64,000 nucleotides of DNA from Euglena gracilis (GCA_039621445.1 CP154954.1:13386716-13450715), one strand, 5' to 3'. Positions 33,895 through 59,039 are shown, counted from the first letter of the stretch. Notes: generated by a model not told the origin, from the sequence alone. Numbers and translations: made by a program.

Positions 33895-34990
33895 CCCTCG
33901 CCATGGCGTACCAACCCCCCCATGGCAAGCCAAATGTTACCAGTTTTGAGGTTCAGTTTGGGGCTCAGGCAGGCGTAAACTTGCGCTTCTCTCTTTCTCG
34001 TTCTCTCTGCCTTTTGCAGCTTTTCTCTCCCAACGATGCATTTGAGAGTTTCGTTTACATTTGTTTTAACGCTTGCGGCCGGCTGGGGTTTGAAAATAAA
34101 ACTGCCTCAAAAAGAAAAGAAGCAGTCCTTGGAAGCACATTTATGCCAAAAGCCAAAAAGGGGAGCCAACAAGGTGTAAAAGGGATAACAATATCTCTTT
34201 CTTTTGATGTAAATGTGGGGGCTGCATTGTTTTTCAGGTTGAATTTCCCATAATTTCTAATGGCCTGGTATCCAAACCTGTTCCTAAAACTCCAACCCCT
34301 GATTCAACCATTTTTGGTGTGACGTTAAAATAATCTGAAAGCACTTCCTTTTTTTGCAGTACAAACAGACAAAGTACAGAACAAACAAACATGTTTTGTT
34401 TGTATTCTTCACAACATCCATTGGACATGCCTCACTCATACAGTTGCAATTGCCCCCAAATCACAGTTTGGTGAAAACAGTGGCGGCATAACCCAGGCAG
34501 TGGAAGTTTCAGTGCAGGGTGGAGAACACAACGGACTGGCAATCCAGTGGCTTGGCAGTACAGTGACAATCCAGTATGGTAGCAGTGGGAGTGCAACTTT
34601 TTTTCAATTATTCATTAAAACAAAAACACCGTTATTGTGAATTGAAATGAAAAGCGTTTTTGGCTTCCTAGTTCGTCTTCACACTCATGCTGTCCCGTCA
34701 AAGATAGGAAAGGAAAGGTCTCCCCCCTTAGTTCTTAGTCTTAGTCTTTAGTCCAAAGAGGACACAAATTGTTTGGTTTCAGCAAATCTATTCAGAAGGG
34801 GAAAATACACAAGGCAATGCATTTTAGGTCCACATTGAGGGGAAACGGGCTGGCCCAGCAGCCCAACTGCAAAGAAACATCGGACACTTTTTCAGATTTG
34901 GGGAGTTGGATCCAATGTATCTAACCGGTATAAAATGAACTCTGGAACGGTTCAAGAATCGAGGGGTGGTACCTTTGCCGGCCTGGAACC

Positions 34991-38100: not shown

Positions 38101-39545
38101 CGACCACTTTTCTGAATAGTCCCCCCCCCCCGAATAGAAGCCCCCCCCCCCTCGGTTTTCGACCAACGTTCCGAATAGTAAACCCCCCCTCCCTAATAGA
38201 AGCACGGATGCGCTTATAGCGGACTGCCATTTCTGGCGGCGGGGGGTGCGCTTCTATTTGGACCCTACCTGCGCGATTTTTGTTGCTTTCCTTTAGAAAT
38301 CCCATCAAAATGGGGGGTGCGCTTGTAGTGGACCGCCCTCTTCGACGGTGGGGGGTGCGCTTTTATTTGGACCCTGCGCTTGTAGCGGCCCCGCGCTTCT
38401 ATTAGGGGGGGGGTTAGCCCCCGGGGGCTTCTATTCAGGGCTTTTGGTGCTTTGCTGGAGGAGTATTATTGTCGATTTTTTGGGGGTTATTTTGAAAAAT
38501 CACGATAAACACCACCAGAACTCCATGTTGACCATATTTGGAAATTTGTTTTGCGTTGAAATTTGTGTTTTTTTTAGAAAAGAAAAATGATGTGATGTAA
38601 TTTCATTCAAAATTACACCACATCTGAAAAATTTTCCCTGAAAAATTTGAATTTTCCCACAATATCTTCCTTTAATTTTTTGTCTCCGTAATTTTTTTGT
38701 CCACACTCTAACGGGAGAGGAGAAGGAGAGGAGGTCATTTCCATTGATCCGCTTAACACCCATGTGACCCCTCGGGGGTGGGTCCTCAAGAGTGGGTGGG
38801 TTCGGCTGCTGGACCCCCCCCCCCCCCCGGGCTGGGGGGCAGACTTTGGCCCAGCCTGGCTTTTGGGTGGGGGGGTTGTGGGTAGGGGTGGGTGGGTGGG
38901 TGGGTTTTCGGAAAAAGTGGGTGGGTGGATTTAGGGCCGGGGAAATGTGTGGGACTATTAAGTGAATTTTTGGCCACGTCATGCAGGTGTGAGATGTAGC
39001 AAAATGCACCGAACCAATGCAGACATGCACGATCACCGTCGTTGGACTGCATTGCCACCGTCTTTGGCTTCATTTTAAATTTGACTGTTGTTGCTTCCAG
39101 GAGAATTAACGCTCTTTGAAGTTTTTCTTTTTCCTACTTCAGAAAGGAATGGTCATTTCCAATACTGGGGTGCTAGTGATGTGTGTGGGCATGCAATGGC
39201 TTGCGATGGTTTGTGCTTCAGATTCTCTGCGGGGACGTTGGCAAGAAATGTTTTCGCTTGAAGCGAAGGATCCTTGTGGTTCAAATCTGGTTCCCATGCT
39301 GCCTCTGTCACCACGACCTTCACCCCCATATTTTGGGTGACATGGGTGGCGTTCCTCATTGATGTCCTCAAGCAGAGCTTCGGCACCCGCACGCTGTATG
39401 TCAGCCAACTCGCCATGGCACCGAACGAGAAGGTGACGACGATGGGCTGGGTCCTTCCTTGTGGCTCAGTTTTTTTTTCTTTTGGCTTGTGCTAAAAGTC
39501 ACTGGAATTCACACAAAATACACACATGGAAGACACCAACACACT

Positions 39546-39598
<53 letters not shown>

Positions 39599-42500
39599 TG
39601 TGTGTGTGTGTGTGTGACATGTGTCATGTTGGGTGCCGCAAGTGCATTTTTCTGTACCGGTGTGAATGAAAACACAGATGGACACCCCACCCCAATAAAT
39701 GATGTGTTGTATTTTTGAGTGGACAAATTTCTTTGTCGAAATTCACATCATTTATTCTGCCTGTTCAGGCTGTTGTGAAAGCGTAGAGTATGGGTAGTGA
39801 GTAAGGGTTGCTTGCACATAATCCCTATAGTTCATTTGGGGTCATCAAGAAACCTTGACTCAACTTCTTCAATTTTTCACCTCACCTGAAATTTTCACTC
39901 CCGCCTCCTTTGTGCCAGTTATTGTGAGAATTGCCTGGTGGTGGTGGTGGTGGTGGGGTATGTCTGGAAGGGATTAGTATTGCTTTTCCTCTTTTCAAAC
40001 TGAGAAAGCGCTCGCCTTTTTTTGATACAATCATTATTTGAAGGGAGAAATGACCCACCGAGCTAACATTTCCGCAGTCAACCAGTTGACGGCAAAGCCA
40101 GTGTATCTGCTGCAGAGTCAGACGGCACCTTCCCAAGTTTTCGACAGGCCCCCACCCTGGAAAATGAACGATCTATGAATTCTGAATGGCCTGCAACAGT
40201 GTTTCATTTCATCAAATGCTGAAACCTCCAGGGCAAGGTTTGAGTCGATCGGTTGACAGTAGGGGTGGATTTAGTAAGAGAAATAATAATAATGTTTTTT
40301 TTCTGACTCAGACAGAATTTTTCATACCCCTCCCCCTCCCCCAACGACCACCCTATTTTACTGACCACACCCCAGTTCGGGGTTGCAGGTCAGGGGGTGC
40401 CAACCCCCCCCCCTGGTCGGGGGTTGTTGGCGACCAAGGGAAAATTGGGGTTTTTGGCGCCGGGTCGTACCCCCCCCCCGAGGGTTGCAGTTCAGGGGTG
40501 CGTATGACCCCCCCCACTTATCGGGTGGAACCTCGTCGGTGGACAAGGGGGGCTAGGAGAGTAAATGGCACAAACGTTTTTTTTTTGGATGCGTTGAAGG
40601 ACCATCCAGCCAGCAGCCTTCATCCCCAGCCATAGACCTCCCCCATCAATGAGCTGTTAAGTCCTGCCGCCCGAAGGACCATTGAATGTCAGGGAAGCTC
40701 GTTCAAGTTCGAGCCCATTTTTCGTTCATTTCTGCCCATTTTTCGGCCGCCTCGACCCGAAGAATCTGTGGTGCAGAGCGTTGCTCAGAAAATTTGCCCC
40801 CCCCCCACCCGAGGGGGTCCAGCCAGCCAGCCAGCAGCCTCTACAGCCAGCAGCCTTTTTTCCAGCCCCGGAACCCCCTCCCCCCCATCAACAAGTTATA
40901 TTCATGGACGGTAACAAATTTCTCGATTTCGGGGGTGCCAAAAATGGGCAAAAATGTCAAATATGGGTCGGATTTGGGCTGACCAGGGCGAATTTGGGGT
41001 CAATTCGATTTTTTTTCTGCATAATTGGCAGTTTTTTTTGGACATTTTTGCAATTTCGATTTTTTTTTTGATTCCCAGTCGATCCCCAGATTGGGGCTGG
41101 CTCCACCCCAGGACCCTGTGGGGGGGGGGAGGGGGGTCAGCCATGCAGTTTTTTTTCTCTCCAGCCCGAATTCTCCAGCCTCTTGGAACCTCCTGGGGGG
41201 GGGGGGTCCTTAAGAAACGCCCTTGTTCCCTGTCCTATTTTTTTGCATACATTCTTGTAAACTTGGTGCTGTTTTTTTTTTAATGAAGTCAACCCCCCCC
41301 CCAATATAAAGCCCCCCTCCCCCGGCTTTACATTTGGACAGGATTTCAAGGCCCCCAGGGGGGGCTTTGTATTTGGGGGTGGAAATCAAACTTTTTTTGG
41401 TGGCCTCTATGACCTTCGGCGGCCTCAATTGTGGCCAAATACCACTTTTATGCCAAATTTTTGTTGTGTACCTCCTATTTCCCCCCAAAATGGGCAATTA
41501 TTGTCCAAAATGGAGCATTTTTGGTGAGAAAAGAGTTTTATCCACCCAATAGTTTTCTACTGTTTCCTGAATGACACCATCGGCTGGCTCCACCGGCTTT
41601 ATATTTAGGCGGCAAGACAATCGCGAGATAGTTTGCCTGCCTAATAAAATTTTATCTTGCATCCGCGTGATTCTGTTGGCATAGCCCACCAACTCTCGAT
41701 ATGATGGAGTTCCTCCTCCTTACATGCCAACTTGCCCGGCCTTTGGTCTTTTGCAAATGACCGCCAAAATTGTTAAAATGTTAAAGCCCCCAAAAGGTTG
41801 CCCCCCTGGCCTAACTTTCAATCATGGCCCGGGCCAAGCGCCAGGGGGTAGGTAGGTATATTTCACTGGGGGTAGTGGATTTGTGGGTCTGTGTTAACCC
41901 ACAAATATTTTCCTGACTGTTCCCTTGACAGCAACTGTATAGAAGGCAGAAGACATGCCCGTGCTCTCTGAAGAAAGTCGAGTTGTGCCTCACTTCCAGG
42001 AAGTGGAAAACTTGCATGAACAATTCAGACACGCCACTTTCTGAATATGATTTGCACCATAAAATAGGCAGCCAGCCATAATTCCTCAGACATTGCATTA
42101 CCTCAACAAACCCACCTTCATTTTGAGGTTTACACACCTTTCTAAACTGTGCATGGCCACTCAACACTGTTGGCAAGGGAGACTGTGGGAAGGTCCTGTC
42201 TGGGTTCAGGTCCATCAACTGCCAAACCAATGAAAGCTCGGGGAAAGACAATGAATGGCAGTGCAACGACATGGTTCAGGAAGAGGGGCATGCAATGAGG
42301 AAGAGGGGCGTGCAAGGGTAGCATGAAGAGGCGATTGGAGGGTTACACGTGGTTGCCACAAGTGTTCCATATGGGACTCAAGAAGATCCCTGTAATGATG
42401 CGTGATTTCGGTAATGCTGCAGAAGAGCCGCCCTCGGTCACCAGAACAACTTTGGGCTAGTTTTCCTGTGAATGTTTTTGGTGGCATTTTTTTTGAGTTT

Positions 42501-44922
42501 AATTTTTACTTTTATTCAATTTATTTCAATTGTAATTTTGATTTTCTGGCATCCCCCCTGGTTTTCCATGGCGCAGGCCTCCCCCCAATCTGGCGAAGTG
42601 GGACGACGGCTGGCTGGGCTCCATGATGTTCAACCGCTACACGGGGCAGGTGGAGCTGTCCATCCGGCAGAGCGCAGGGACTCTCTGGCGGCCAGCCGGA
42701 TGCCCCCTCCCCACCGGCTCATTGGGCTGGCAGGCCATTTGCTGAAAGGGATCCAGAAACATGGTTTTGATGATGCTCAAAGTTTCAAGGTTCTGAACAT
42801 CTGTGTAAAAGGGAAGGTCCAGACCATCAGGGTTCCGTTTTTTTCCCTTGGCTTTTTCAAGCCTTGTGTACCAGGCCAAATTGCTTGCCAGAATTGCTTG
42901 AACAGGTGTTCGAGCAATTCTGAACTGGGTTCAGATGAACAGAACGGGATTTCTGGAACCATCAGATTGGGGGGTGGTGTCAAGCAGCCACAGCATTTTC
43001 CCAACCGACACCAATTGTTGCAGCCCGTGGACCCCGGAATTGGCTTTTCATGGGCAGTGTAAGCGAAGTCCCCAGCAAGCGAATCTCTGGCCCCACCTCG
43101 CTGCCCAGAACGGGACGTGGGTCCAGCTGTACATCAGTATGGGGGCATCGACCATCAGCGACGAGCTGCGGAGCCAGCTGGAGGGGTTCCCGGATGTTCA
43201 AGTGCCACCCAAAACTGCTGTGAGTTGGTTTGTCCTGCAGTTTTCTGTGCATTTGTTGTGCAGACACTTGTTCGATGGATGGATGGTTGGGAATGATAAT
43301 TGTGTGATGACTGTGTCCGACATTTTTTCTTAAATTGATGAACCTTCTATGTTTTGTGTTTCTTTGAGCTTTAAGGTTGTCCCCCTGACGGACAAATGTT
43401 ATATATTTTTTGTGCATCTCACCGAAAGATAGCACTTTTGCAAAGTTGTGTATTATTGCCACATCAAACACACAGCCTCAGTTCTCATTATCTGATGCAT
43501 TAAATCATATTGATGTGTGGCTGCAGTTTACAATAGCTTATTGCTTCTCATGGTCAGAAATCACTTTCTGTTTTCGAATTGGTGATGCAGGCTGGGTGCG
43601 CTTGTAAGAGACCGGCTGGTGCTCTTCTTCCGCCAGCCCCACGGTTATATGATAGCACCCAGTGGTACTCTGACCCTTCCTTTATCAGTTTATCCCTGTT
43701 TATCCCAGAACTGTGCAAATTATTCACAAAATTCTGAAATTGCAGTTTAATTGGGTTTGTTTGTTTTGTGTATGTTTTATGTGTGTTTGTCTTCTTCACT
43801 CTGAACCTACAACGTTTTTAATTGCATTTCCTTTCACCTCTTCATTTCTCACCTTTCCCTCAACGTTCCATCTTCGATGGCCCCACAACCCCAAACCCAA
43901 TTCGTCCCCCAGAGTCGTTCCATGCCCCAGGGTTAGCTTACAAAAAGGGTGTCATGGGTTTAAGCGAGGAGCCCCCTTTGTAGAGGGTGAGGGTCCCTCC
44001 CTCCTGGGTGGGGGGTGGGTTCGGACCCCCCCCCCCCCGACTTGCGAAGGGGGAGTCTGGACCGACCAGGGGACCCGACGATCCGCAATGGTCAATTTTT
44101 TTTTGCCTCCAACAGTTAACACCAAAATTTTTAACAATTTTGACAATTTCAACAAGTTTTTGTCCAGAAAGTGCCAAAATTGCATTTTGGGTCGATTTGG
44201 GAGGTAAAAAAAAACTTTGGCTTCATTTTGGCCAAGCCGCTGTTTCGGTTTTCTGAACCCCCCCCTCCCACCAAACCCTGTCTGCCCTTGCTTCCGCATT
44301 CCTGCGGTGGCCGACTACCCACCTCGGCACACCGCTGTCCTCGGCCTCGCTTCCGCATTCCTGCGGTGGCCGACGACCCACCGCGGCACACCGCTGTCCG
44401 CGGCCTCGCACGGGAAGTACTTCAGCCACAGCGACGTGGACCGACGCTACATCAACCCGCTGGTGAACCCCACCAACGTCAGCGCGTACCGCCTCTGGTC
44501 CAGGCTGGGTCTTGAATCCGCAGCTTGTGAGCAGCATCTCTTGCATTTGCCATCGAAGGCGGTTGAAATTCAGCCTGACCTTGACATGCCTTCAGAGCAA
44601 CGACGCACTCATCTTTCAGGCCTGCCAACAACTGTATGGCACTTACCAGTCCGGGGAGGTCCTTTCTAACTGAAGGGACAGAACAGGAGACAGTGTATTG
44701 AACAGTTGTTTACAGGTGCTGGTTTGGGCTGGCCGAGTTTTGGGTTTGACGATGGGTATCGTTTGTCATCTTTTTGCACGGCGACACTTTGAGACACACC
44801 AAAGGCCCTTTTAAAACCAGAGGGACTTGTGGTGCCAATGACCACTTTAAAACACCTCTACAGGTTTGGTTTTGCCATATACATACATACATACATACAT
44901 ACATACAGACAGACAGGCAGGC

Positions 44923-44959
<37 letters not shown>

Positions 44960-47900
44960 TACATACATAATGTATCATAAGGCATTATGTCCGTTTCCTC
45001 CAGTGAACCTCCTGAAGTGGCTCTTTGCCAAATCTCTGGGAAGTTGCCATTTGAAGGTCTGAGTTTGGGCCTGTTGACAGGTTCCCTCTGTTGTGGCTGA
45101 CTGAGCAAACGCCACCACGAAGTGTCTTGATGTGGTGGAATGATGCGCAAATCAAGCGGATCTGACGTGACAGTTGCCAACCGCTGACCATGGCAGGAGG
45201 GAAATCACAAACCTCAAAACATTTTATTTTTATTTAAATAGATTTTTTACCATATACAATAAATTTTGCTAACTGTAATATAATTATCATAAATATACAT
45301 AATTTTTTAAATATATAATAAAATTTCTGCACACAAGTTTTCGTCGTGATGCCTCCTGCATGGTTTTTGGATGGACATGAGAAGAAGAAGCCGCGCTGTG
45401 GGAACCGGATGGGGCCCTCCCTGGCCCCCAGTCGTGGACCGCCATCCCTGCGATGAACCAGGAGATGGTGCTGAGCGCCCAGCGGTACTGGGTGGCCACT
45501 GGCTACAGCACCGGAGCTCGGGGGCGGCGCTGGAGGAGAGACCGGATTGCTTGTTGGTTTTTTTTGCCTGTGAATGGTTTTGAAAGCTGGTGTGATGGCT
45601 GCCCACGTGGATGTTGTCTGCTGGGCTTTTCTCCACCAATGGACTTATCACAAAGGTATCCAATGAATAATAATTTGAAGAATAAGTTGTGTCGTATGCA
45701 GTGGTCATTGGTCATCATTTGGCACTTTTGAGAAACGCTATTTAGCCTGTTGTAGGCGTCTGGCGCCTGTTGTGTGTGTGTTTTACGAGGGGCCCTGCTC
45801 TTTCCCACCACCCCCTCTGTGCCTCCGACCTGCCGAATGGCACCCAAGTGTTAATCCTCCAAAATACACTGCCAGCGAAGGGGAATGGTGGATTTGCCAC
45901 GCAGCCACATCGCCTGGCCACGAACAGTGCGGACCATCCCCGGCCCGGCCCCAGCCTGCTGTGTACGGTGCTAATGCTGAAGAACCGGGCGGCGGTGATG
46001 GGCAGCATCGACGCCAGCAACGCGCATGTGGACCAGCGGGTGGCCGACAAGAAGGGGGTCACGGCCGGGGTTGGCTGCTCTCGCTGTTGAGGCACGGCCC
46101 ATCGTCAACATTTAACTGATGAAAATGTTGATACATTATGATGATGTGCAGATCTATGCATGTACGTATGTGGCCAATGAGCACCGAATGAGCACCACTG
46201 AACGCCAGCTGTTTTTTTTTTTTATGAAGGGGTTCCCTCCGACATCGGTGTGTCTCGCACATGCACACATACAATGAGTGTATCATCATTGTGTGTTTTA
46301 TTATCACATATTTGTCTGTTTGCAAAGGCTGTCCCCATGTCACATTTTATGCAACGATCATACCTTGCACAGTTGCTTGTCTTCATGCCAAACTTCCGGT
46401 GAAGGAACCTCCACATCTACGCCCCGCCTGTGTTCGTCATACTGGGGGTGGTCAGCGCCATCGCCGTCCTGCTGCCGCTGAGCGTGGGCTTGTGGATGGC
46501 CTCACGGCTCTACACCCTTGCAAGAGGGGTCAGGGCCCTGCCCCTGTCTGGGCCTGTGTGGCTCTCCTCCTCTCAGCAATTCGGGGCACGAGCGACCAAA
46601 GAAAAAGAACAACACATAATTAAATGCAACATCGAGGGTCTGCTCTTTGTCCCCCTGAGTCAGATCCAGGGTGCCAGGGAGCGTTAGTTTCATGCGGGGA
46701 GAGCCCCCCCCCCCCCTCTGGGCTGGGGGTTCTTGAGGGGGGTCAGACCCCCAAGAACCGAGAAATTTTCTTCCCCTTCAAAGCACCGGGGAAAGGATTT
46801 TCACGTATTGCTGATTTTTCGAAATGAACCCGAAAACACGATTTTTGGCTTTTTGAGCCCCCTCCCCCAATTGTCCCGGCGCTTCGTGGCTTTTTGCTTT
46901 TCGCAGGAGGGGGGCCTGACCCCCCCTCCACCCTCATTTGGTGCCTTGGACAAGACTGTGTGGGAATCCCTGGGACCCTTTGGGTGTTGCGGGGCCACCC
47001 GGGCATTGGTTTTTTAAGGCAAAATTTTTATGGCATTATAGGGCATTCTTTAAGGCTTTTTGAGGCTTTTTAAGGCACTATTCTCCAGGGGAGTCCAAGG
47101 GCTGTCCGGGCATCAGAAAAGTTTTTTTTTTTGATTTTGCATGTGGTCCAATTAATTTTTTTTTTTGCATTTTGGTTAATAAACAACGTTTGGGCAATGC
47201 CAAAATCATTTTTCTTTCCAGAGCTGACCTGCGTTTGCTGAGGTTTTTTGGCTTTTTCTTTGCTCGGTCGGAGAATTTTCTGCCAGCCCGAATTTGTTGA
47301 ATTTTTTGGCATTTTGAGGCATTTTAGCCAAAAAAAATTCAAGGCTCATTTTCAGGCATTTAAGGTTTTTTAAAAAAATGCCTTGCAAATAAAAAAAATG
47401 CCACCCCATCTCATATCTCCAAGGCGCTGATTTCTCTGTGCCTTCGGGGCCAAAGAAGTTTTTCTTGCAAACTGCCAGGGTGGGAAGGGGGTAGATCCCC
47501 CCATCAGACCTTCTTGTACAGCCCTGTCCAAAGCTTTCTTTCTTGGGTGTGCTCTTTTTCTTGCAAAGTCAAAAGTGTCCAGATCATCAGACTTCTTCCA
47601 GTTTGATTTCTGTTTTCATTCCATGATTTTCATCAACTTGAAATCAGACCGCTGCGGACAAGGCCCTGCCTCCGATGGACCGCATCGCCCAGCTGCAGTT
47701 CACCACCACAGCCACGAAGCCCACTGTGTTCCGGGAACTTCACCGCTTCCAGACCTCCTTCACCCAGATGGAGCGCGGCCTGCAGGGCAGGCTTCTTTTC
47801 AATGAAAAAAAAGTGGTCACCTCCCCTCCCAGGTGGGTGATACCAGAAGAAAACTGTTGTGGGGAGATTCTGGACCAAGTTTTGCCCAGGATTTTTTTAC

Positions 47901-50900
47901 GGCAGATTCAAGAAAAGCCCAATTTCCTCCAGTGAACCTGCGAAATTTTCTTTGGCATTTTGCACGGTTCCTTGGAATGTTCCAAGTCACCTGTTCAAAA
48001 GGTGTATTGATCATTCAGCATGTGATTTTTTAACGTTCAAATCCAAACTTTTTGAATTTTGGATTTGGAGAAACCAATTTTTGGGTTTGGTGTGGAATTT
48101 CCCTGAAGAATGGCTTTGTGAGATTTTCTTCATCCAGAAATTTCCTGGCCGTTTTAAGGGGGCGTCCAGGATTTTCCCCGCATTTTGAGGATTCCCCACA
48201 AAAAATTTTCCATCTGCAATTGTTGCTGATCAGATCCCGCCATTTCAAGGACATTTTGTCCCTCTCCCTTGGATGTCACGTTGGGTCAACTGACTTTTTC
48301 TGTTGGAAAGTCCACTGGGAGGCCTCCACGGCAAGTTGTTACTCACCCTCCCTTCCTAAAAATGAAATGAACCCCCTTATAGCACCAAAAAACCCTGCCT
48401 CCTGGGGGGTCAAAATACCCCCCCCCCCACTCCGCCTGTCCATACTGGGGGGCTGGGCGACCGTTGCCAATTGTCCAACGAACAAGGGGCGTCCAGACTG
48501 TGTAGATTGTCTCCTTTCACAGCAAATGGATGATTATTTCCTCGTCCAATGACCGGGCTTGTCCAAGAAATCCCCCCCTGGTCAGATGCGACCTGTGATG
48601 TTTGTCCCTAAGTAATGGAGGAATTGTGGTTTAATTTCGCTTTTTTTTGTATTTGCAAGTTTCAGAGAAGCTTTTTTTTTGCAGCCTGTTGGAAAAACCA
48701 TAAACTGGCTGAAATGCCAAAATGACCCCCCCCAAAAAATGGCCAATGCCCCCGCAATGGCTCCCAAAATGATTCAAATTGGTGTACCCCCTGTCTGCTG
48801 ACCACCCCGTCAGGCTTTTTGTCAGGCTGTATGACATCGAAATCTCATTCCTGCCTTCCTGCTGATGGAAGATGTCACAGGGTTGAATAATACATTTCAG
48901 GGGAACGTGGCAGATGACACCCAATCATATGTCTATCCAGCAAAAGATCATGTCAGGGAAAGGTCCCAATGGGGATAAATCCCCTATACATCGACACCTC
49001 CTGGTCGGAGGATGAAGGTTGCAGGTGGTTTTGAATATTGGGTTTTTTTTTGGCACCTAACCCCCCCCCAAAATAAGACCCGGGTCTTATTTTTGGGTCC
49101 GTTGCTGGAAACCTCCAGGGGGGGGGTCTTATTTTTGGGGGGGTTCTTATTTTTGGATTTTTTCTTGACCGACCCGGGACGAAAAAAACATCATTTTTCA
49201 GGTTCCCAAAAACACTAAAAATTTTCCTTCGGCGCTTCGCGCCATGTGTAAATTTGTGTAAGTGGACATTTAGCATGTTTTTTGCACTTCAAGAATCTGA
49301 AATTTTTTGAAATTTCATCATTTTTGTGTGTGAAATTTGGGTTTTTGGCAATTTCTCAGGGAAAATTTTCACCGTCCCCGGCGCTTCGCGCCGTCAGGGG
49401 GGGGGGGTCTTATTTTTGGGGGGGGTCTTATTTTGGGGGGGGGTCTTATTTTTGGGGGGGGGGTTTAGTCGTGCAACCACTCCCTGGTCGGGGGTTGTTG
49501 GAACCTGGTCAATGGGGAGGGGGCTGGTAAAGTGAGGTTGCGACAAACAGCCGAAAGTTGCTCAAATTTGGCCAAAAAATGACCAATAATAGTCGAAATG
49601 GCCAAAAAAATGGCCGACAGTGGCCAAAAATGGCCAGAAGTGGTCAAAGGATGCCAATTGTGCAAAAAAAAAAGGGGCTAAAAACAGCCAAAATGGTCTT
49701 GATTCCCTATTTGTGGCCAACTTTTTGCCAACATGGGGTTCCCCTATTGTCTAACAACCCCCTCCACCCCCTGGTTGGAGACAAACGTTGGCTGTTTTAG
49801 CACCCCCCCCCCAGTCGGAGACGATCATTTGGTGTCATTGAATCATGAAATGGGGGGAGGTTGCGAACCCCATGCTTAATGAACGTCTAATGCTTAATGC
49901 TTAATGAACCCCATACTTAATGAACTGTCCGGACCAATCCCTCGGGGGGGGGGGGTTGGTCAGACTCAGCTTGGACCGCGTGCATAACAGCCGAAGACCC
50001 CCTCCTCCAGGGGGTTGTGGAAAAGAAGGCTGCTGTGGGCGTTTGGGAAGTTCGTGCCCCAGGCGGTGGTGAAGGTGCTGGGCAGCCCCGGCCCGTGATG
50101 TGCCAAATTGGGGCATTGCGTCTTGCACAAACCCTGATGGATCCTGAATGGCATCTGGGAAATGAGGTTTCTCTCTGGAATCCCTTTCTGGAGTGACAAA
50201 AGGGACCAGCGGAAAAAACAGCCAAATCCACCTGAGATGCCAGATTTGTCCCAGTCTCAGGATGTGACACGTCACGTGACACCCCCAAATGACATGGGGC
50301 CAACACCTGCAACCAAAAAGAAAACCTTGAAAAATTGGCTGCTTGAGCACAAGGAGAAAAACCCAGGCATCACAGCTGGGCGTCTCCGATTGCAATGCCA
50401 AGGCACTGGGGCATTTCAAACCAACCACAGCAACCGGTGACCCTTGACATGTACATCGAATGTGCGGCTTCTTTGTCGAGTCACCTCTTTTGACCGGCGG
50501 CTGATTCTGATTGCTGGCCAAATGAAAGCCAACGATGAGATGCACCCCAAGCAGGCCGCTGTTCATTGTTCCTGAGGTCTAATCTGCAATCCTAAAGGTT
50601 TCGTCTCTCATCCGGAAACCGAAGATATGGGCCGTCAGTGGTAATCCGTTTAATCATAAATTTGCGCCAAAGTGAGCCCGCTGAACTCCTGATCTGCTGA
50701 ACTTCCCCGTTTTTTTTTCATCGGCCCCCTGGCTGTGGGTTGCAGATGCCTTTGGCGTCACTGTTGAGCTGTTTGGAATCAGTTCCACCTGTGGTTGCAG
50801 CCTGCCAGAGGGGACATGGGATGGTTTTCCTGAGGTCGCAACCAAACACGTGAGTTTAAAGCCCCACCACCATGGAGATGGTGGTGGGGCAATCAGTTGC

Positions 50901-52678
50901 CTGCCACTGAAACGCTGACCATCATGTTTGCGGACATTGAGGGCTTCTCCACCATCTGTGAGAATGAGACCCCCGCCGCGCTGGTCGCCGTGTGCACGGA
51001 GTACTTCGAGGCCATGTGCAGCGCACCGAGTCTCCTGCAGACAAACCCCAGAACACCCCCCCCCCCCAACGACAGGAAGTTTTGGAAACTTTCAAACACA
51101 CACTAAGCGAAGGAAAATATGGCTCAAATCACCGAAGGTTTTCAGGAACTGGGAAATGATGTGTCTTTATGTCGGTCCTTCCTCAATGAAGAATCTTGAA
51201 AGTGGGGTATGTTCCCACCCATATGTGTTTCATTTCGGCTCTTTGGCTTTTTTGCCATTTTTCTCACATTTGGCTTGCAAAACGGCTTTTTCGCCATTTT
51301 CTCAATGGCGAAACGGCTTTTTTGCTGTTTTGCCAACGGCTAAACGGCTTTTTCGCCGTTTTGCCAACGGCGAAACGAAAAGCCATTTTGAAACAAGTCG
51401 GCTTCTGATGGGTGGGAACATACCCTCTAAAATAAGGAACGGTCTTGTTCCCAGGGAAGGTCTCAACCCCAGGGGGATGTGGGTCGTGAGAGAGCAACCC
51501 CCCCCCCCTTCGATGCGGAAGGTTCTAGGAGCCCAAAAATGGCCCAAGCTGGGACTCAAATTCCCCCCCTGGTTGTGTCCCTGCTATGAGCTAGCACCCC
51601 ACACAGCGATGTTCTAAGTTTGTTGACCTGGGGGGGGGCGCCCCCCTCCTGCTGGGGTTTAGTCGAGGGGGTATCCTCCTCTAGCGGTTCTCCTCTAATT
51701 TCGGTCTGAAAGCTTTTTGAAAACTTTTTCGACCAAATTTGACCCCCGAGCTCTCCCCCCCCCCCCGTGGGGGCCCTCTGGGTGGGTGGGTGGGTGCCGA
51801 CCTCCCCCTCCAGATCCTGAAGAACCTCTGAAAACCTTCTAGCACGAGGCACAATCTCCCCGGGGCTTGTTAAAAGGAGCCTGCTGGAACGTCCTCTGTA
51901 TGGGTCTCGGACCCCAATATTGTGGAACGAAATGGCACCATCGACAAGTTCATCGGTGACTGCATTGAAAGCCCCACGGTCGGCGGTTCGGTCAACCCCC
52001 CCCCTTCGATCCAACTGCTCCGCTTTTGACTACTCGGTTGGTGGTGTGACTCCGAGGCAAGTGGGGAAAAGGCACTTCCTGACAGTGTTTGAACATTATC
52101 GTCCAGATTTCCTTTTTTTAATAAACAATCTAATGTAATGGATATGTGCATGTATTTAGGAACATATACACACCGCATATGTATATATATATAAAATATG
52201 CACATGTACATAGGTATATGTGCATGTGTGTGTCCATATGTATTGGCAGGTGCACCTTTTGATTCCCTCCCCCTTGGGGGTATCAAAGTGCACACTTGGT
52301 TGGCCACGGATGCCCTGGGGATAATGAGGGTTAGGCTAATTATCGGCCTAATTATAGGTTAGTTTGGGCATAATGCAAGGCCTATTTTTTTTTTTAGGAT
52401 TTCGGCCTAACTGTAGCCTAAAACCCTAACCCTAACCACTCCCAAACCCCAACCCCAATTGCTTTTTATGGGATAATCTGGAACTCGCTTCCTCACATCC
52501 AAAATTATCAAATTTCCACCGTCGGAAGATCGAAGTTGGTGGAGAAAACGGCCAAAATCAAGGGGCCGGTCCCACTTGTATGACGCGGGAGGGTAAAAAA
52601 ACCCTCACCTCATACTGGTGGGACCCCCCACCAGTCGGGCCCAACTAATATGGGGTCGCCATGCATGCATGCATGTGA

Positions 52679-52709
<31 letters not shown>

Positions 52710-55700
52710 TGTATGTATGTATGTATGTATGTATGTATGTATGTATGTATGTATGTATGTATGTATGTATGTATGTATGTATGTATGTATGTATGTATGT
52801 ATGTATCTATGTATGAATGAATGTATGCATGTGTGTATATGTGTGTATGCATATCCTCACGACTGTTTGAACAAGGTTGTGCACGTGTCCTCGCTTTACA
52901 TAAATATAAATAATAATACTGTACATACTTATGTATTTGTACCAGATTCTTCTCCTCATAAACCACCCAGTCCACCACCTGTTTCTGTCGATTCCCACCC
53001 GTGGGGCTGCGCCATGGCGATGTGGAACGCGCCGGAGAGGCTGCCCGGACACGAGAGGGACGCTGTGGCCGCGTCGCTGGCGATGCAGGACGCCCAGGGC
53101 TCAGACATTACCAAGCCCCCCCCTCCCCCGGAAAAGGTCTCGTTTTGGGGACTGTCACCGGCTGACGGGTTATGTTGGACAGATGTTGCCACTAGAGGTC
53201 CTCCTGCCAAGCTGTTCTCTCGGCTTTTATGACAACGTCTGATGGGGGGGGGGTTGGCATGCATCCTTCAGTTAGACCCCACGCTCCATACATGGCAAGA
53301 TTCATGTTATTTTTTTGGTCTGTGATCCCATTGAAATTTCTTTTCTGCACCATCTGGGCGGAAATCATTTCTCTGTTGGTGAGCGAACACAAAAGAAGTA
53401 AGTTTGCACCCAGAGTTAAGCTCACCATCCAGTTTGGTTTGCACCAGAATTCCGATCCCAAATTCTCGATGGAAGTCATCATCAGGGATAGGACCAAAAA
53501 ATTATGGGTTCGAAATTCTCGAACTTTTCGTACCTTTTTTCTCAACACCGCCTCTGCCCAGTCCCATCCCCTGATTCTGAAGGGAAACTCCCCCAGATTT
53601 AAGCACCCGTTGAATAAATTTGGGTTTCAGCCGATCTGCCCAAGGGGTGGCCTAAATCTGGTGGCTGCTTCCATTTTGGGTTGAATGGATAGTCAATGGA
53701 TAGTCAATTTCAATGGTTCTTGGCAAGATATGAACCGACACCGTCCAAATCCGAAATTGGATGTGTGGCAGCCAAAACCATCCCCCCAACGGAGATGGCA
53801 TTATTGGCAGAGGGTCCCAAAAAAGAAACACACACACATGTGGAAGCTCTTGGTCCTCTTCTAAGATCAGGTCCTGCCGCTTGCGTCGTGGACCTCCACC
53901 AGTTATGGCGGTCCCGGGGGCTGCCCAGACCTCTCCTTCGCGCATGTCGGCAAAAAATGCAATTTTTTCCAAAAATATTTGCAAATTGGGGGCCTTGACC
54001 CGCACTAAGGAGAGGCCTGGGACTGCCAGTGCTGAAGTTCCGCGCGGGCATCCACACCGGCCAATGTCTCGTGGGCAACTTCGGCCAGTGCCGAGTCCAC
54101 GTATCTGTGGATACCTTTTTTTGCCCCTTCCCGGATCTCATAACATGCTTCCCTCAACAGGAGTCTGCAAATCCAGGTCAGAGGTCATTTTGGTGGTTGC
54201 TGACCCTTCCCCAGGTTGTTTCTGGTTTTCTCCCACATAACAGGTTTTCCTTGAACATTGAGAAGGCACCACAGACGGAAATTTTTCCTTCAAACATTGG
54301 TTTTTCTCAAGTTTTGATTTTTTCTGGCTCCAAATCCACCCTCTTTTCTTCATGGTTGCGAAAACACCCGGGGGGGGGTTCAATTTTTTCCCTTGAAACA
54401 CAAAAAGAGAATCCGGAGAATGAGGAACGCCCTGGAATGTTCAGAACAAAAGTTATGTTTATGACCACAGATAATGCACAAGGCGCAGCTAGAATGACGC
54501 TATCCACAGTGAATTTCGAAGCTTTGAAGGACATTTAGAAGAATTTTTCCAGAGCTCCTCATCAAATATGCCAAATTCTGAAGTTGGGAAGGTTTTTGCG
54601 GGGGCATCTGATTCGCACCTCATTGCAGAAGCCCAGGTCATGTTGCTGGCTGCAGGGGGGTGCATTTCGCATTTTTTCCTGCATTTTTTGGGGCTTTTTT
54701 TGCGCATTTCCCCCCAAATTTTCCACAAATGGGCACTTTTTTTTATTTTTTTCGACACAATTTTTTTTTGCTTTTTTTTGCCATTTTTTCGTGATTTCCC
54801 CAATTTTTCGAATCTTTGACCATTTTTGCAATTCTTTGCATTTTCTTGAGATTTTCGAATTTTTTTGAACCTGACTTTTGCTGCCGACTGGCGGGGGGGG
54901 GGGGACCTTGCCGACGTCGAAGAAAATGTGCAAAAAGAATGCACAAAAATGTGGCACTTTGTGTGCAAAACCTAGAGAAAAGGCACAAACATCAAGAAAT
55001 GTGAAAAATACCCAAAAGCGTGCAAAAATGGCACCAAATTGACAGAAATGATATTGGAATTGTGATTGACCGCCCCACCCCAACCCCCCAAATACTCCCC
55101 TCTTGCTTCAGAAGACCTCTGGCCAGGCAGGTTGGCAAGTGGAATGGGAGGAGTTATCGAAAAGAGTTGTCATCTGACAATCACAGGCAAACAAAAAAAC
55201 AAAGAGCCCCATTGTCTAGGCCCCTGGCATTTCAGTCAATTCAACAACTGTAGTAGTATCCTGCTCCGCTTGCTCTCAGGAACCCCATTTTCCTGAGCAA
55301 CCTTCCCAGGCAAAGAAGTTGTATTTCTGTCCGATATTCTGGTGCGTGCTTCTCGTCCTCTTCCCCCCATTCTCCGTTGTCCCGGGGAGGTGGGCTCGGT
55401 CGCTGGGGGCTGGCTGCAGCTACCGTGTCAGCTACACCTGCCTGGGGGACGGGGTGGGCCAGCCCCCTCCCGATTGGCATGCTGCCCATGTGGACATTGG
55501 GCCGTTGCAGTCGTTGGTCTAGTTTGCCCTTCCCCCTGGGATCTGCAGAAGCACACTCCCCGAACGACTGTTTTGCATGTTGTTGTTTTTAATGTTTCAC
55601 CCCTGTTTCAGCAGAATTGGGGGTTTGGGGGGTTTGTCTTATTTTGAAAAATTTGGCCATACTCCCCCCTGCCCCAGGGTTGGGATCCCTGAAACCTCAT

Positions 55701-56582
55701 GGGTGGTGGGAGGGTGTGTCGATCTCCTCATCCTGGTCGGGGGGGGGGGCATCACCCCTTCACCCCTTCCTTCACCCCTTCCCATCTCACAAATGCCGAT
55801 TTTGAGGCACCATTGGCACCGAAGGAATTTTGTTTGACTGCCATGGTCAGTTGGAGTCCTCCCGACCATTCTCCCCACCCCCAGGTCCCACACCCAGGGG
55901 CTGCGCACCAGGCCTTCTGAACACTGCCCCATTTTGAGTGCCTCCAAATGATTCACCAGGGGGTTGAGGTTCTTCAAGTCGTCACGGGGTGTTGACCATG
56001 GTATTGCATGCAAACCATGATCTGCAATTCAGCTCACTCACAGGGTTTCTTTGAGGGTTTTTTTTTGTGGGTGTTCGAAAATGTATTTTGTTTATTCCCA
56101 CCGTTTCTTCATTTAGCCCGTGTGACCCCACCTCTGAGGGGGTTTGAGAGTGGGTGGGTTGGGGTTGAGCTGCTGGACCCCGCCCCACTCCCTGGGGGCG
56201 GGATGCACTTTGAGTCAGCCCAACTGGGCCGGGGCTGGGTTGGCAATACATATTTCGAGGGGTTTTGGCAGATTTGGCATGGTTTTGGGCTGGATGAGTG
56301 GGTGGGTGCCCCCCCCCCCTGCAGGGGGGGAGGGGGAGGTCCGGCAACAGGTGCCCACCCCCGCCCAGGGGGCCACTGAGTGAATCCATGTTCCTACCAA
56401 GAAGCTTCTCTTGTGATGGATGGGGGGCGGGAGGGGCGCTGCCGGCCCAACCTGTCGGCGCGGCTGGAGCCGCTCAACAAGAAGTTCGGGACGTTCCTCT
56501 GCGTGTCCCACGCCACGTTCGAGGCCTGCCGGGGGGACTTCCACTTCGGCGGCTGGCGAAGGTGACGGTGCCCGGCAACGCC
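34991..56582 (+). CDS. Receptor-type class III adenylate cyclase (2 TM, large extracellular domain, HAMP-like linker, cyclase domain); 24 exons joined across 23 nonconventional introns; 5' and 3' ends incomplete
   Basis: Exons joined at stem-defined junctions give one reading frame, apart from a 1-nt slip in exon 24. It contains TIMFADIEGFS, TIDKFIGDCIMAMWNAP, FRAGIHTGQCLVGNFG and SYTCLGDGVNLSARLE (class III cyclase motifs), two hydrophobic helices (exons 1 and 14) and a HAMP-like segment. Exons: 34991-35127, 35621-35720, 36020-36066, 37140-37227, 39313-39444, 40062-40153, 42583-42671, 43095-43195, 43610-43656, 44402-44497, 44583-44647, 45430-45515, 45953-46062, 46432-46527, 47674-47784, 50038-50079, 50509-50548, 50909-51022, 51916-51966, 53014-53091, 53882-53922, 54025-54082, 55412-55456, 56449-~56582. 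Confidence 0.9.
35621..35720 (+). CDS. Adenylate cyclase exon 2
   Basis: YQAIEKFDTHITEGEREMMELALMIQGSGVLSF; next intron AGT-CGGGCACCTG...CAGGGGCCTG-GCTAC, in frame. Confidence 0.75.
36020..36066 (+). CDS. Adenylate cyclase exon 3
   Basis: DLHPSRFDIPKQGLA; the 3' boundary rests on a short stem only (GTC-TGCC...GGCA-GCTCC). Confidence 0.6.
37140..37227 (+). CDS. Adenylate cyclase exon 4
   Basis: FHSQPFTTMQAHPYFSQAAVLGSYFDPTN; next intron GCT-CAGGGGC...GCCTCTG-TCACC. Confidence 0.7.
37730..38440. mobile_element. Intronic MITE-like element (CCGAATAGAAGCCCC repeats) in intron 4
   Basis: Repeated CGAATAGAAG motifs with an inverted CTTCTATT end; related copy at ~4020-4245. Confidence 0.5.
39313..39444 (+). 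CDS. Adenylate cyclase exon 5
   Basis: TTFTPIFWVTWVAFLIDVLKQSFGTRTLYVSQLAMAPNEKVTTM; next intron stem TGGGTC/GACCCA (3' boundary +/-1). Confidence 0.75.
39545..39616. repeat. (GA)n(GT)n microsatellite in intron 5
   Basis: Directly visible. Confidence 0.95.
40062..40153 (+). CDS. Adenylate cyclase exon 6 (3' boundary approximate)
   Basis: ANISAVNQLTAKPVYLLQSQTAPSQVFDRP; open frame directly after the partner stem of intron 5. Confidence 0.6.
42583..42671 (+). CDS. Adenylate cyclase exon 7 (5' boundary approximate, within a C run)
   Basis: PNLAKWDDGWLGSMMFNRYTGQVELSIRQ, GC3-rich codons; next intron GCG-CAGGGACTC...GAATCTCTG-GCCCC. Confidence 0.7.
43095..43195 (+). CDS. Adenylate cyclase exon 8
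   Basis: LAAQNGTWVQLYISMGASTISDELRSQLEGFPD; next intron GTT-CAAGTGCCACCCA...TGGGTGCGCTTG-TAAGA. Confidence 0.8.
43610..43656 (+). CDS. Adenylate cyclase exon 9
   Basis: DRLVLFFRQPHGYMI; next intron ACC-CAGTGGT...ACCGCTG-TCCGC. Confidence 0.8.
44402..44497 (+). CDS. Adenylate cyclase exon 10
   Basis: ASHGKYFSHSDVDRRYINPLVNPTNVSAYRL; next intron (85 nt) GTC-CAGGCTG...CAGCCTG-ACCTT. Confidence 0.8.
44583..44647 (+). CDS. Adenylate cyclase exon 11
   Basis: TCLQSNDALIFQACQQLYGTY; next intron AGT-CCGGGGAGG...CCTCCCTGG-CCCCC. Confidence 0.8.
44877..44968. repeat. (TACA)n(CAGA)n microsatellite in intron 11 (copy at ~58953-59049)
   Basis: Directly visible. Confidence 0.95.
45430..45515 (+). CDS. 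Adenylate cyclase exon 12
   Basis: SWTAIPAMNQEMVLSAQRYWVATGYSTG; an alternative stem register is possible at the 3' boundary. Confidence 0.75.
45953..46062 (+). CDS. Adenylate cyclase exon 13
   Basis: SLLCTVLMLKNRAAVMGSIDASNAHVDQRVADKKGV; next intron GGC-CGGGG...CCCCG-CCTGT. Confidence 0.8.
46432..46527 (+). CDS. Adenylate cyclase exon 14 (TM2, start of HAMP-like linker)
   Basis: FVILGVVSAIAVLLPLSVGLWMASRLYTLAR; next intron GGT-CAGGGCC...GGCCCTG-CCTCC. Confidence 0.85.
47674..47784 (+). CDS. Adenylate cyclase exon 15 (HAMP-like)
   Basis: MDRIAQLQFTTTATKPTVFRELHRFQTSFTQMERGL; next intron GGG-CAGGCTTCTTTT...AAAAGAAGGCTG-CTGTG. Confidence 0.85.
49056..49468. mobile_element. Intronic MITE (AATAAGACCC family) in intron 15
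   Basis: CTAACCCCCCCCCAAAATAAGACCC inverted to GGGTCTTATTTTTGGGGGGGGGGTTTAG; copy at ~63140-63630. Confidence 0.6.
50038..50079 (+). CDS. Adenylate cyclase exon 16
   Basis: AFGKFVPQAVVKV, resembling the F-x-x-[YF]-V-P linker upstream of class III cyclases; next intron GGG-CAGCCCCGG...CCGGCGGCTG-ATTCT. Confidence 0.85.
50509..50548 (+). CDS. Adenylate cyclase exon 17
   Basis: IAGQMKANDEMHP; next intron AAG-CAGGC...GCCTG-CCACT. Confidence 0.8.
50909..51022 (+). CDS. Adenylate cyclase exon 18 (first metal-binding Asp)
   Basis: ETLTIMFADIEGFSTICENETPAALVAVCTEYFEAMCS; next intron GCA-CCGAG...CTCGG-ACCCC. Confidence 0.92.
51916..51966 (+). CDS. Adenylate cyclase exon 19 (substrate Lys, second metal Asp)
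   Basis: NIVERNGTIDKFIGDCI; next intron GAA-AGCCCCACGG...CCGTGGGGCT-GCGCC (perfect 10-bp stem). Confidence 0.92.
52680..52830. repeat. (TATG)n microsatellite in intron 19
   Basis: Directly visible. Confidence 0.95.
53014..53091 (+). CDS. Adenylate cyclase exon 20
   Basis: MAMWNAPERLPGHERDAVAASLAMQD; next intron GCC-CAGGGCT...GGTCCTG-CCGCT. Confidence 0.9.
53882..53922 (+). CDS. Adenylate cyclase exon 21
   Basis: CVVDLHQLWRSRG; next intron (102 nt) GCC-CAGACCTCTCCTT...AAGGAGAGGCCTG-GGACT. Confidence 0.85.
54025..54082 (+). CDS. Adenylate cyclase exon 22
   Basis: PVLKFRAGIHTGQCLVGNF; next intron GGC-CAGTGCCGAGTCCAC...GTGGGCTCGGTCGCTG-GGGGCT. Confidence 0.9.
55412..55456 (+). CDS. Adenylate cyclase exon 23 (substrate-specifying Thr)
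   Basis: GCSYRVSYTCLGDGV; next intron GGC-CAGCCCCCTCCCG...CGGGAGGGGCGCTG (boundary +/-1). Confidence 0.9.
56449..56582 (+). CDS. Adenylate cyclase exon 24 (transition-state Asn/Arg); apparent 1-nt frameshift near 56547
   Basis: NLSARLEPLNKKFGTFLCVSHATFEACRGDFHF, then RLAKVTVPG in another frame; followed by GCC-CAGGG, a probable next intron start. Confidence 0.85.
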
Positions 56583-57259: not shown

Positions 57260-57272
57260 NNNNNNNNNNNNN
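57260..57272. other. Scaffold gap (13 N)
   Basis: Run of n characters. Confidence 1.

Positions 57273-58998: not shown

Positions 58999-59039
<41 letters not shown>

Follow-up and report, generated by a model that had tools for sequence, protein, structure and literature searches.

A cyclase gene with 24 introns

The window, by which we mean the whole 64,000-nt stretch of Euglena gracilis DNA analysed here (GCA_039621445.1 CP154954.1:13386716-13450715), contains a class III adenylyl/guanylyl cyclase gene on the + strand at 34036-56523, with 25 exons and 24 introns. The gene model was produced by mapping a transcript-derived protein, P0001, exon by exon onto the window. P0001 (EG_transcript_6004 in EukProt naming, 656 aa) showed 100% identity to the query exon, differed from the gene model at 1 residue and matched Pfam PF00211 at residues 503-639 (E 1.9e-16). 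The C end of P0001 is incomplete and the gene may therefore extend past 56523. The exons measured 40-141 nt with a GC content of 0.595 and the introns 85-2444 nt (20,520 nt in total) with a GC content of 0.481. P0001 demands that introns 1-24 are all removed from the mRNA. The introns had been described as holding kilobases of inserted repeats; almost no dispersed repeats were found inside them within the window, and only microsatellites and the deep RNA-contig coverage within introns 5 and 16 fit that description. Rfam at gathering thresholds returned 0 matches in the window.

RNA evidence was taken from putative RNA contigs of three studies and one raw RNA-seq run over the stretch 34901-52679, which ended before a repeat at 52680-52806, so that read-level coverage stopped short of the 3' end of intron 20 and of introns 21-24. 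Contigs and raw reads together placed at least 9 RNA joints at model introns (introns 2-10). For introns 11-13 the agreement with the model was indirect and came from the piece arithmetic of one RNA contig (X2 record 8). Among the RNA joints listed none lay at the model position of intron 1 or introns 14-24, and the exact junctions of these introns were therefore given by the protein model and a partly chosen register. The cyclase family of this gene is large and paralogous transcripts were present in the RNA contigs. Joints 50080>50915, 51018/51021/51022>51934-51937 and 46020>47718 were not counted as splicing or exon skipping at the locus, because foreign letters lay between the two sides or because they fitted paralogous cyclase-family transcripts.

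The intron ends pair on a ruler

By their ends the 24 introns are not conventional spliceosomal introns. GT/GC-AG ends were found in 0/24 introns in any protein-compatible register and AT..AC ends were likewise found in none. Stems of at least 3 bp on the ruler were present in 24/24 introns when the 3' spacer was allowed to be 5-7 nt. The preliminary description had proposed a ruler of 3+5 nt, and this was borne out, with the helix starting at +4 and the 3' spacer measuring 5 nt in 19/24 introns, 6 nt in 3/24 and 7 nt in 2/24; the ruler is already published. Exact pairing of +4,+5,+6 with -8,-7,-6 was seen in 19/24 introns. The core triplets were CAG/CTG in 13/24 and complementary variants in the other 11. 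Registers were selected for pairing and not for border bases, and the border bases were as follows: intron position +1 was a purine in 24/24, intron position -1 a pyrimidine in 21/24, the upstream exon ended in a pyrimidine in 17/24, and the downstream exon started with a purine in 23/24 and had C as its third base in 14/24. The side rules for border bases seen here are those listed in the available text of Milanowski 2016 (PMC4770533).

Introns 2-10, all on the + strand like the rest, had RNA joints among those listed. Intron 2 (35128..35620; CAG/CTG, 6-bp stem) was slidable by 3 at joint 35126>35620 (both=3), and intron 3 (35721..36019; CGG/CTG with one G-U, 5-bp stem) corresponded to joint 35719>36019 (both=1). 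Intron 4 (36061..37133; CAC/GTG, 3-bp stem) was not slidable, and its joint 36060>37134 (both=0) was supported by 3 contig sets and 6 raw reads. Intron 5 (37228..39312; CAG/CTG, 8-bp stem) had joint 37226>39312. Intron 6 (39445..40064), also not slidable, paired TGGGTC with GACCCA over 6 bp and had a 7-nt 3' spacer at joint 39444>40065 (both=0). Joint 40141>42586 (both=1) supported intron 7 (40143..42586; AGG/CCT, 3' spacer 6, 5-bp stem), and 42671>43095 (both=0) supported the non-slidable intron 8 (42672..43094; CAG/CTG, 6-bp stem). Intron 9 (43196..43609; CAA/TTG, 7-bp stem) and intron 10 (43657..44401; CAG/CTG, 7-bp stem) had joints 43195>43610 and 43654>44400 (both=2), respectively.

Intron 11 (44498..44582; 85 nt, CAG/CTG, 10-bp stem) was placed by the protein model, and the 63 nt between pieces of X2 record 8 fit the next exon. 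Contig pieces at 44400-44497 and 45428-45515 flank intron 12 (44648..45429; CCG/TGG with one G-U, 9-bp stem), which has up to 7 nucleotide-equivalent registers (44646-45433). Intron 13 (45516..45952; CGG/CCG, 4-bp stem) came from the model, and a piece of X2 record 8 ends at 45515.

Intron 1 (34077..34986; CGG/CCG, 3' spacer 6, 4-bp stem) lay beyond the read-covered region and was defined at the protein level only. Introns 14 (46063..46431; CGG/CCG, 6-bp stem), 15 (46528..47673; CAG/CTG, 7-bp stem), 17 (50080..50508; CAG/CTG, 5-bp stem) and 18 (50549..50908; CAG/CTG, 5-bp stem) followed the protein model, as did intron 16 (47785..50037; CAG/CTG, a 3-bp stem only), where loose RNA ends were seen at 50038. 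Near intron 15 the RNA also has a joint 46476>47674, alternative or paralogous. The junction of intron 19 (51023..51915; CCG/CGG, 5-bp stem) was taken from P0001 because the RNA contigs there were mostly paralogue-derived. In intron 20 (51967..53013; protein model) AGC/GCT lies at the base of a 10-bp stem that is Watson-Crick at 10/10 positions. Loose RNA ends at 51965/51966 continue into the exon that follows intron 20. The protein model also gave intron 21 (53092..53881; CAG/CTG, 7-bp stem), the sole intron with a pyrimidine (T) at the downstream exon start, intron 22 (53923..54024; CAG/CTG, 3-bp stem), which has 11 protein-compatible registers, and intron 23 (54083..55411; CAG/CTG, 3' spacer 6, 5-bp stem). 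Intron 24 (55457..56448; CAG/CTG, 4-bp stem) was defined at the protein level only, with spacers of 3+7, or 4+6 in another register. The 3-bp stems of introns 4, 16 and 22 were not all individually significant.

Minimum free energy folding of full introns placed the same helix at the base of the structure. Intron 9 was closed by its terminal stem and intron 20 (1047 nt) by its 10-bp stem, each with 3 and 5 nt left free. The fold of intron 11 was closed by the same terminal stem but had extra pairs outside it.

End pairing exceeds chance

Several introns were slidable and their register had been chosen by an earlier reader, and the null was therefore given equal register freedom. It comprised all protein-compatible registers, 3' spacers of 5-7 nt and pseudo-3' ends sampled along the gene in 7-nt steps. 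Chance, or an artefact of picking among slidable registers, would account for the stems if registers picked to display pairing, with up to 11 protein-compatible registers in one intron, had created them, and single-intron p values were often weak (introns 13, 16 and 22 gave 0.19, 0.44 and 0.67, respectively). Even with equal register and spacer freedom in the null, the Fisher-combined p was 7.6e-15 for the 24 introns and 1.4e-8 for the 11 non-CAG introns. For the seven intron pairs named in the preliminary description (introns 3, 9, 12, 13, 14, 19 and 20), which lie and pair as it said, the joint Fisher p was 8.7e-7. Cognate arms formed a mean stem of 5.83 bp on the ruler compared to 2.70 bp for non-cognate arms, with mean duplex energies of -19.8 and -13.0 kcal/mol (permutation p <= 1e-5 for both), and register-blind pairing gave 6.0 bp cognate versus 4.3 bp non-cognate (p <= 1e-5). 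The introns with non-slidable RNA joints (introns 4, 6 and 8) paired all the same. We rejected chance and register choice as the source of the stems and give them a negligible probability; the pairing of the intron ends is genuine and greatly exceeds what chance would give.

Intron-specific addresses are not supported

It had been claimed that the best partner of every 5' arm is the 3' arm of the same intron, and that the stems serve as an intron-specific address code by which each 5' end finds its own 3' end, so that the short exons (40-141 nt here) are not skipped. The first of these claims held on average, as the means above demonstrate, and the stems run past the triplet with intron-specific sequence. 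Taken intron by intron it held only in part. The cognate arm was the strictly best partner on the ruler in only 7/24 introns (best or tied in 12/24, bettered in 12/24). In the all-versus-all duplex energy matrix it was best in 9/24 rows and not best in 15/24, and in the register-blind comparison it was strictly best in 5/24 and best or tied in 9/24. Incidental exon skipping in CTG mutants, reported in the main text of Nomura 2025 (PMC12501133), is in line with an address function. Against it, the CAG/CTG core is common to 13/24 introns, and a 5' arm paired with the 3' arm of the next intron by at least 3 bp on the ruler in 14/23 pairs, which is not depleted compared to permuted intron order (mean 13.0, P(<=14) = 0.87). 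Such skip stems were at least equal to the weaker cognate stem in 8/23 cases, and across all downstream skip combinations 170/276 paired by at least 3 bp. The address code against exon skipping was thus not supported, and we regard it as unlikely. A search of the literature on nonconventional introns and exon skipping did not find this proposal.

Helix, ruler and published code underspecify the splice sites

Watson-Crick 5-bp stems on the 3/5 ruler occurred 88,094 times in the pre-mRNA (intron length 50-2500) versus 8 true introns that have a stem of this kind. Applying the published triplet rule with a purine exon start still left 1,468 matches, of which 6 were true. Decoys vastly outnumber true sites, and pairing is therefore necessary yet cannot alone define the sites. 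These counts show that the splice sites are underdetermined by helix and ruler, even once the published code is added.

The code set out in the main text of Nomura 2025 (PMC12501133) is 5'-N3CDG-/-CH'GN5-6|R. By genomic knock-in that study demonstrated that pairing and spacers of 3 nt and 5-6 nt are required, and that the natural variants CGG-CCG and CGG-CTG are used. Any single substitution in CAG or CTG abolished splicing, and among second-position swaps that kept complementarity CTG-CAG alone was spliced, from which its authors infer sequence constraints besides pairing. Fully synthetic 50-bp introns made to the rule were spliced, and the code fits 61.2% of nonconventional introns genome-wide in E. 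agilis. The preliminary description had held that pairing, and not sequence, defines the sites. In this gene complementarity at +4..+6 / -8..-6 was indeed constant and the CAG/CTG letters were not, but the claim was overstated, given the effect of these triplet substitutions and the abundance of decoy stems.

The code fitted 15/24 introns here (62.5%). The agreement extends to the 3-nt 5' spacer, the 5-6-nt 3' spacer, the triplets CAG/CTG, CGG/CCG and CGG/CTG, and the purine exon start. The nine misfits were CAC/GTG, TGG/CCA with a spacer of 7, AGG/CCT, CAA/TTG, CCG/TGG, CCG/CGG, AGC/GCT, one T exon start and one spacer of 7; they are exceptions to the main-text code, and the supplements of Nomura and Milanowski may already list such triplets. 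AGC/GCT, AGG/CCT, TGG/CCA, CAA/TTG and CAC/GTG differ from it at triplet position 1 or 3, intron 4 (CAC/GTG) doing so at position 3. CCG/CGG and CCG/TGG have C at position 2, where the 'D' of the rule (not C) is broken by intron 19, and the 7-nt 3' spacer and the T exon start differ as well. Stem length did not differ between code-fitting and misfit introns (means about 5.6 versus 6.2 bp). One possible reading of the misfits, which we offer tentatively and with more doubt than confidence, is that the machinery reads the position of the helix and not its bases, that the published sequence constraints are context-dependent, and that a further determinant separates true sites from decoys. If helix position is what is read, the thousands of unused ruler stems would call for such a further, undescribed determinant.

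Origin of the complementary ends

A MITE origin of these introns is a published hypothesis. Under it the complementary ends would be relic terminal inverted repeats of MITE-like transposons, and the triplets would reflect the source elements and not compensatory evolution. At most junctions there were short direct repeats, seen as slides of 1-6 nt, such as target-site duplications would leave. The introns compared here are non-homologous, and no actual compensatory substitution event was observed. A second copy at 57273-64000 differed from the gene in its introns only (185 differences, versus 0 in exons), and when we looked there for compensatory changes none of the 185 was informative for a stem. 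Speaking against relic repeats, the main text of Nomura 2025 (PMC12501133) reports that helix, triplet and spacers are needed and that rule-built synthetic introns are spliced, the available text of Milanowski 2016 (PMC4770533) describes numerous compensatory changes when homologous introns are compared between E. agilis strains, and neither the initial nor the final 25 nt of the 24 introns had BLAST-level similarity elsewhere in the window. MITE descent is compatible with the explanation we prefer as an account of origin; as the sole account of the paired ends it fails, and we consider it very unlikely.

Nonconventional introns and related systems

The 24 introns that divide this adenylyl cyclase gene are almost certainly nonconventional (non-spliceosomal-type) introns of the usual Euglena gracilis kind. 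The anatomy, the RNA joints and the statistics were established here, and the need for helix, triplet and spacers comes from the work of others. In the proposed mechanism the two intron ends form a short helix that starts at +4 on the 5' side and leaves usually 5 nt, and in fewer introns 6 or 7, on the 3' side, followed by the purine that opens the next exon. This helix would draw both junctions together, and a putative machinery would cut 3 nt upstream and 5-6 nt downstream of it and then join the exons. The cutter may be an endonuclease/ligase-like 'molecular ruler'; to our knowledge, no enzyme that cuts nonconventional introns is known. The intron would be released as a circle, following the literature, and work cited in Nomura 2025 (PMC12501133) describes this circular excision as not depending on U1 pairing.

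The end-pairing rule, its covariation and the ruler are already in print and mutagenesis-tested, and this gene therefore adds little to the field on those points. Reading the bare sequence was enough to bring out a splicing rule that is genuine and unusual. The gene is a compact natural panel of 24 nonconventional introns, 9 of them outside the published code, that could widen the code, and the decoy count indicates that true nonconventional sites need marking beyond helix, ruler and published code.

As far as the available texts go, nothing essential differs from the euglenid nonconventional introns of Milanowski 2014 (PMC3935182), Milanowski 2016 (PMC4770533) and Gao 2024 (PMC11170887). They share the lack of GT/C-AG borders, the +4,+5,+6 / -8,-7,-6 pairing, a purine at the intron start and downstream exon start, a pyrimidine at the intron end and, often, slidable junctions. 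CAG/CTG is the majority but not the only triplet pair in both sets (13/24 here versus 33/55 in PMC4770533). An adenylyl cyclase gene in which 24/24 introns are nonconventional is not among the genes treated in the available text of the cited euglenid work. Guminska 2018 described a conformation unlike that of tRNA or self-splicing introns, and Milanowski 2014, in the text available, names bulge-helix-bulge splicing and IRE1-dependent HAC1/XBP1 splicing as analogies. In the introns described here, as in bulge-helix-bulge archaeal/tRNA introns and IRE1 splicing of HAC1/XBP1, the cut sites are set by distance from a helix and not by a conserved sequence at the junction. Bulge-helix-bulge introns have two 3-nt bulges with a 4-bp helix between them. 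The Euglena geometry departs from that of those protein-catalysed systems in having a single terminal helix whose base is flanked by unpaired strands of 3 nt and 5 nt. The noncanonical introns of diplonemids, a sister lineage in Euglenozoa, are likewise non-GT-AG in the available account (PMC12621601).

Gene model and RNA support of the intron junctions

The 44-residue translation of the exon at 39313-39444 was used as a query and matched the transcript-derived protein EG_transcript_6004 (EukProt; 656 aa, referred to as P0001) with 100% identity over the exon. By this label the host is a euglenid, Euglena gracilis. A Pfam scan of P0001 placed PF00211, the adenylate/guanylate cyclase domain, between residues 503 and 639 with an E value of 1.9e-16. 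Using tblastn and spliced exact alignment, P0001 was placed on the window as 25 exons on the + strand (34036-56523). Exon lengths ranged from 40 to 141 nt with a GC of 0.595, and the 24 introns ranged from 85 to 2444 nt, summing to 20,520 nt with a GC of 0.481. The sole residue mismatch over the 656 aa was a methionine in the transcript versus GTG (valine) at 53888-53890, probably reflecting variation between strains or alleles.

For the junctions in the region 34901-52679, contigs (presumed RNA) were taken from three runs, each of a different study, and raw reads from one RNA-seq run. Among the joints listed, those of introns 2-10 agreed exactly with the model on the + strand in RNA contigs and reads, with a slide ambiguity of 0-3 nt (35126>35620, 35719>36019, 36060>37134, 37226>39312, 39444>40065, 40141>42586, 42671>43095, 43195>43610 and 43654>44400). 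One contig (X2 record 8) contained the pieces 44400-44497 and 45428-45515 separated by 63 unplaced letters, the size of the intervening exon. In the conserved catalytic part the contigs were mostly paralogue-derived, with depths in the thousands and foreign letters between joint sides, and the junctions of introns 14-24 therefore rest on P0001. RNA contig depths in the thousands and letters diverging between joints at 50038-51966 show that these catalytic-domain exons are part of a large, highly expressed paralogous cyclase family; the exon boundaries at 50038, 50080, 51022 and 51934-51966 are common to the cyclase paralogues. One further joint, 46476>47674, was detected in RNA contigs from two runs as well as in 4 raw reads. 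Its donor lies 51 nt upstream of the model donor, in frame with the loss of 17 residues, and its 5' triplet GAG pairs incompletely with CTG. This joint is either an alternative site or the product of paralogue reads.

Intron ends pair at fixed distances from the borders

A preliminary description of the window had proposed that the triplet at intron positions +4 to +6 pairs with the one at -8 to -6, leaving spacers of 3 and 5 nt outside the helix, and had named seven introns in which both triplets depart together from CAG and CTG or pair through G-U. We inspected the ends of every intron in each compatible register and all seven pairs were recovered on the + strand: CAA/TTG in a 7-bp stem in intron 9 (43196-43609), CGG/CCG in introns 13 (45516-45952, 4 bp) and 14 (46063-46431, 6 bp), CCG/CGG in intron 19 (51023-51915, 5 bp), AGC/GCT with 10/10 Watson-Crick pairs in intron 20 (51967-53013) and, with G-U, CGG/CTG in intron 3 (35721-36019, 5 bp) and CCG/TGG in intron 12 (44648-45429, 9 bp). 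CAG/CTG was used by 13/24 introns and other triplets by 11/24, all 11 of them complementary (CGG/CCG in three introns, then CGG/CTG, CAC/GTG, TGG/CCA, AGG/CCT, CAA/TTG, CCG/TGG, CCG/CGG and AGC/GCT once each). GT/GC-AG ends were found in 0/24 introns in any register. The 5' spacer was 3 nt and the 3' spacer 5 nt (19 introns), 6 nt (3) or 7 nt (2). The 7-nt spacers belong to 39445-40064, which is non-slidable and RNA-confirmed, and to 55457-56448; in the published assay a spacer extended by 2 nt resulted in weak splicing (Nomura et al. 2025, PMC12501133). When the entire 414-nt intron 9 and 1047-nt intron 20 were folded, both MFE structures closed with exactly this terminal stem, with 3 and 5 nt unpaired, and the fold of the 85-nt intron 11 closed with its terminal stem plus extra pairs outside it. 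The border bases were a purine at intron +1 in 24/24 and a pyrimidine at intron -1 in 21/24, and on the exon side a purine as first downstream base in 23/24, a pyrimidine at the upstream end in 17/24 and C as third exon base in 14/24.

As many introns are slidable, pairing could arise merely from the freedom to choose a register. The null was given equal freedom, using all protein-compatible registers, 3' spacers of 5-7 nt and pseudo-3' ends sampled along the gene at 7-nt steps. The p values combined by Fisher's method were 7.6e-15 for the 24 introns, 1.4e-8 for the 11 non-CAG introns and 8.7e-7 for the seven named ones, which excludes chance as the source of the paired ends and confirms them as a real observation. 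An all-against-all matrix of intron ends, proposed as a check in the preliminary description, gave a mean stem of 5.83 bp for cognate versus 2.70 bp for non-cognate pairs and duplex energies of -19.8 versus -13.0 kcal/mol, and 0/100,000 permutations reached the observed cognate mean (p <= 1e-5). The register-blind matrix gave 6.0 versus 4.3 bp (p <= 1e-5).

Pairing is necessary and does not by itself specify the partner or the site

Although cognate ends paired better on average, the cognate arm was the unique best partner on the ruler in only 7/24 introns and best or tied in 12/24, and by duplex energy it was best in 9/24 rows. The statement that each 5' arm pairs best with its own 3' arm holds strictly on the ruler for 4/7 named introns (9, 12, 19 and 20) but not for introns 3, 13 and 14. 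The stems had further been suggested to act as address codes against exon skipping. Pairing of the 5' arm of one intron with the 3' arm of the next reached at least 3 bp on the ruler in 14/23 cases, with no depletion relative to permutations of the intron order (13.0 cases on average; P(<=14) 0.87), and in 8/23 the skip stem equalled or exceeded the weaker cognate stem in length. These data speak against an address code as a sufficient mechanism; longer stems may well still help. Literature searches on nonconventional introns turned up no address-code proposal.

The claim that pairing, not sequence, defines the splice sites goes beyond the evidence, as decoy stems far outnumber true introns. 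At intron lengths of 50-2500 nt, the pre-mRNA contained 88,094 perfect stems of 5 bp placed on the 3/5 ruler, 8 of them true introns. When triplets also had to follow the published rule (CDG/CH'G) and the exon had to begin with a purine, 1,468 matches were left with 6 true, both counts being inflated by microsatellites. Ruler pairing is therefore necessary and cannot be the site-defining feature. In published second-position swaps that kept complementarity only CTG-CAG was still spliced, and it is inferred there that the sequence is constrained by more than pairing (Nomura et al. 2025, PMC12501133).

A second copy and repeats

The triplet comparison is one between non-homologous introns, and compensatory substitution events were not observed within the window. 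A copy of the 6.6 kb segment 43209-49822 (introns 9-16 with exons) lies 14,064 nt further downstream, at 57273-64000, with 98.9% identity, beginning directly after a 13-N scaffold gap (57260-57272). The two copies differ at 0 exon and 185 intron positions (gap columns counted), and none of the differences between them was stem-informative. Recent tandem duplication could account for the second copy, as could scaffolding that joined in an allele or haplotig. Summed RNA-contig word depth in introns 5 and 16 (37866-38458 and 48540-50318) was about 120-900, far exceeding the adjacent exons, suggesting dispersed repeats, either transcribed or abundant at other places in the genome; these stretches had no further copies within the window. 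Long tetranucleotide microsatellites of the (TGTA)n and (ACAG)n types occur at 940-1630, 44870-44970 and 52650-52830, two of them inside introns 12 and 20. Rfam returned no family at gathering score on either strand of 1-64000.

Relation to known euglenid introns

Together these data confirm the observation and partly support its interpretation, and the phenomenon is already known: these are euglenid nonconventional introns, and the main point of the preliminary description is in print. Positions +4,+5 and -7,-6 were reported as the most conserved and complementary (Milanowski et al. 2014, PMC3935182), +5,+6 and -8,-7 were paired in 55/55 introns with CAG/CTG in 33/55 (Milanowski et al. 2016, PMC4770533), and terminal pairing was shown for thousands of E. 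gracilis introns (Gao et al. 2024, PMC11170887). In genomic knock-ins every single CAG or CTG substitution abolished splicing, a 5' spacer of 3 nt was required, the 3' spacer had its optimum at 5 nt with 6 tolerated, a purine was favoured at the exon start and helix beyond the triplet was required; natural CGG-CCG and CGG-CTG introns were spliced, as were fully synthetic rule-based introns (Nomura et al. 2025, PMC12501133). Origin of the inverted ends from MITE transposons, a published idea, is compatible with all our findings, but as the sole explanation it is contradicted by this mutagenesis.

The published code, N3-CDG...CH'G-N5-6 followed by R, was broken by 9/24 introns. As these keep a complementary triplet on the ruler, and four (4, 6, 7 and 9) have RNA joints among those listed, the code appears to allow more than its formula states at each of the three triplet positions. 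The side rules on border bases listed for the introns of Milanowski et al. 2016 (PMC4770533) also apply to the cyclase-gene introns, and the 15/24 introns (62.5%) that follow the code are near the share of 61.2% reported for E. agilis (Nomura et al. 2025, PMC12501133).
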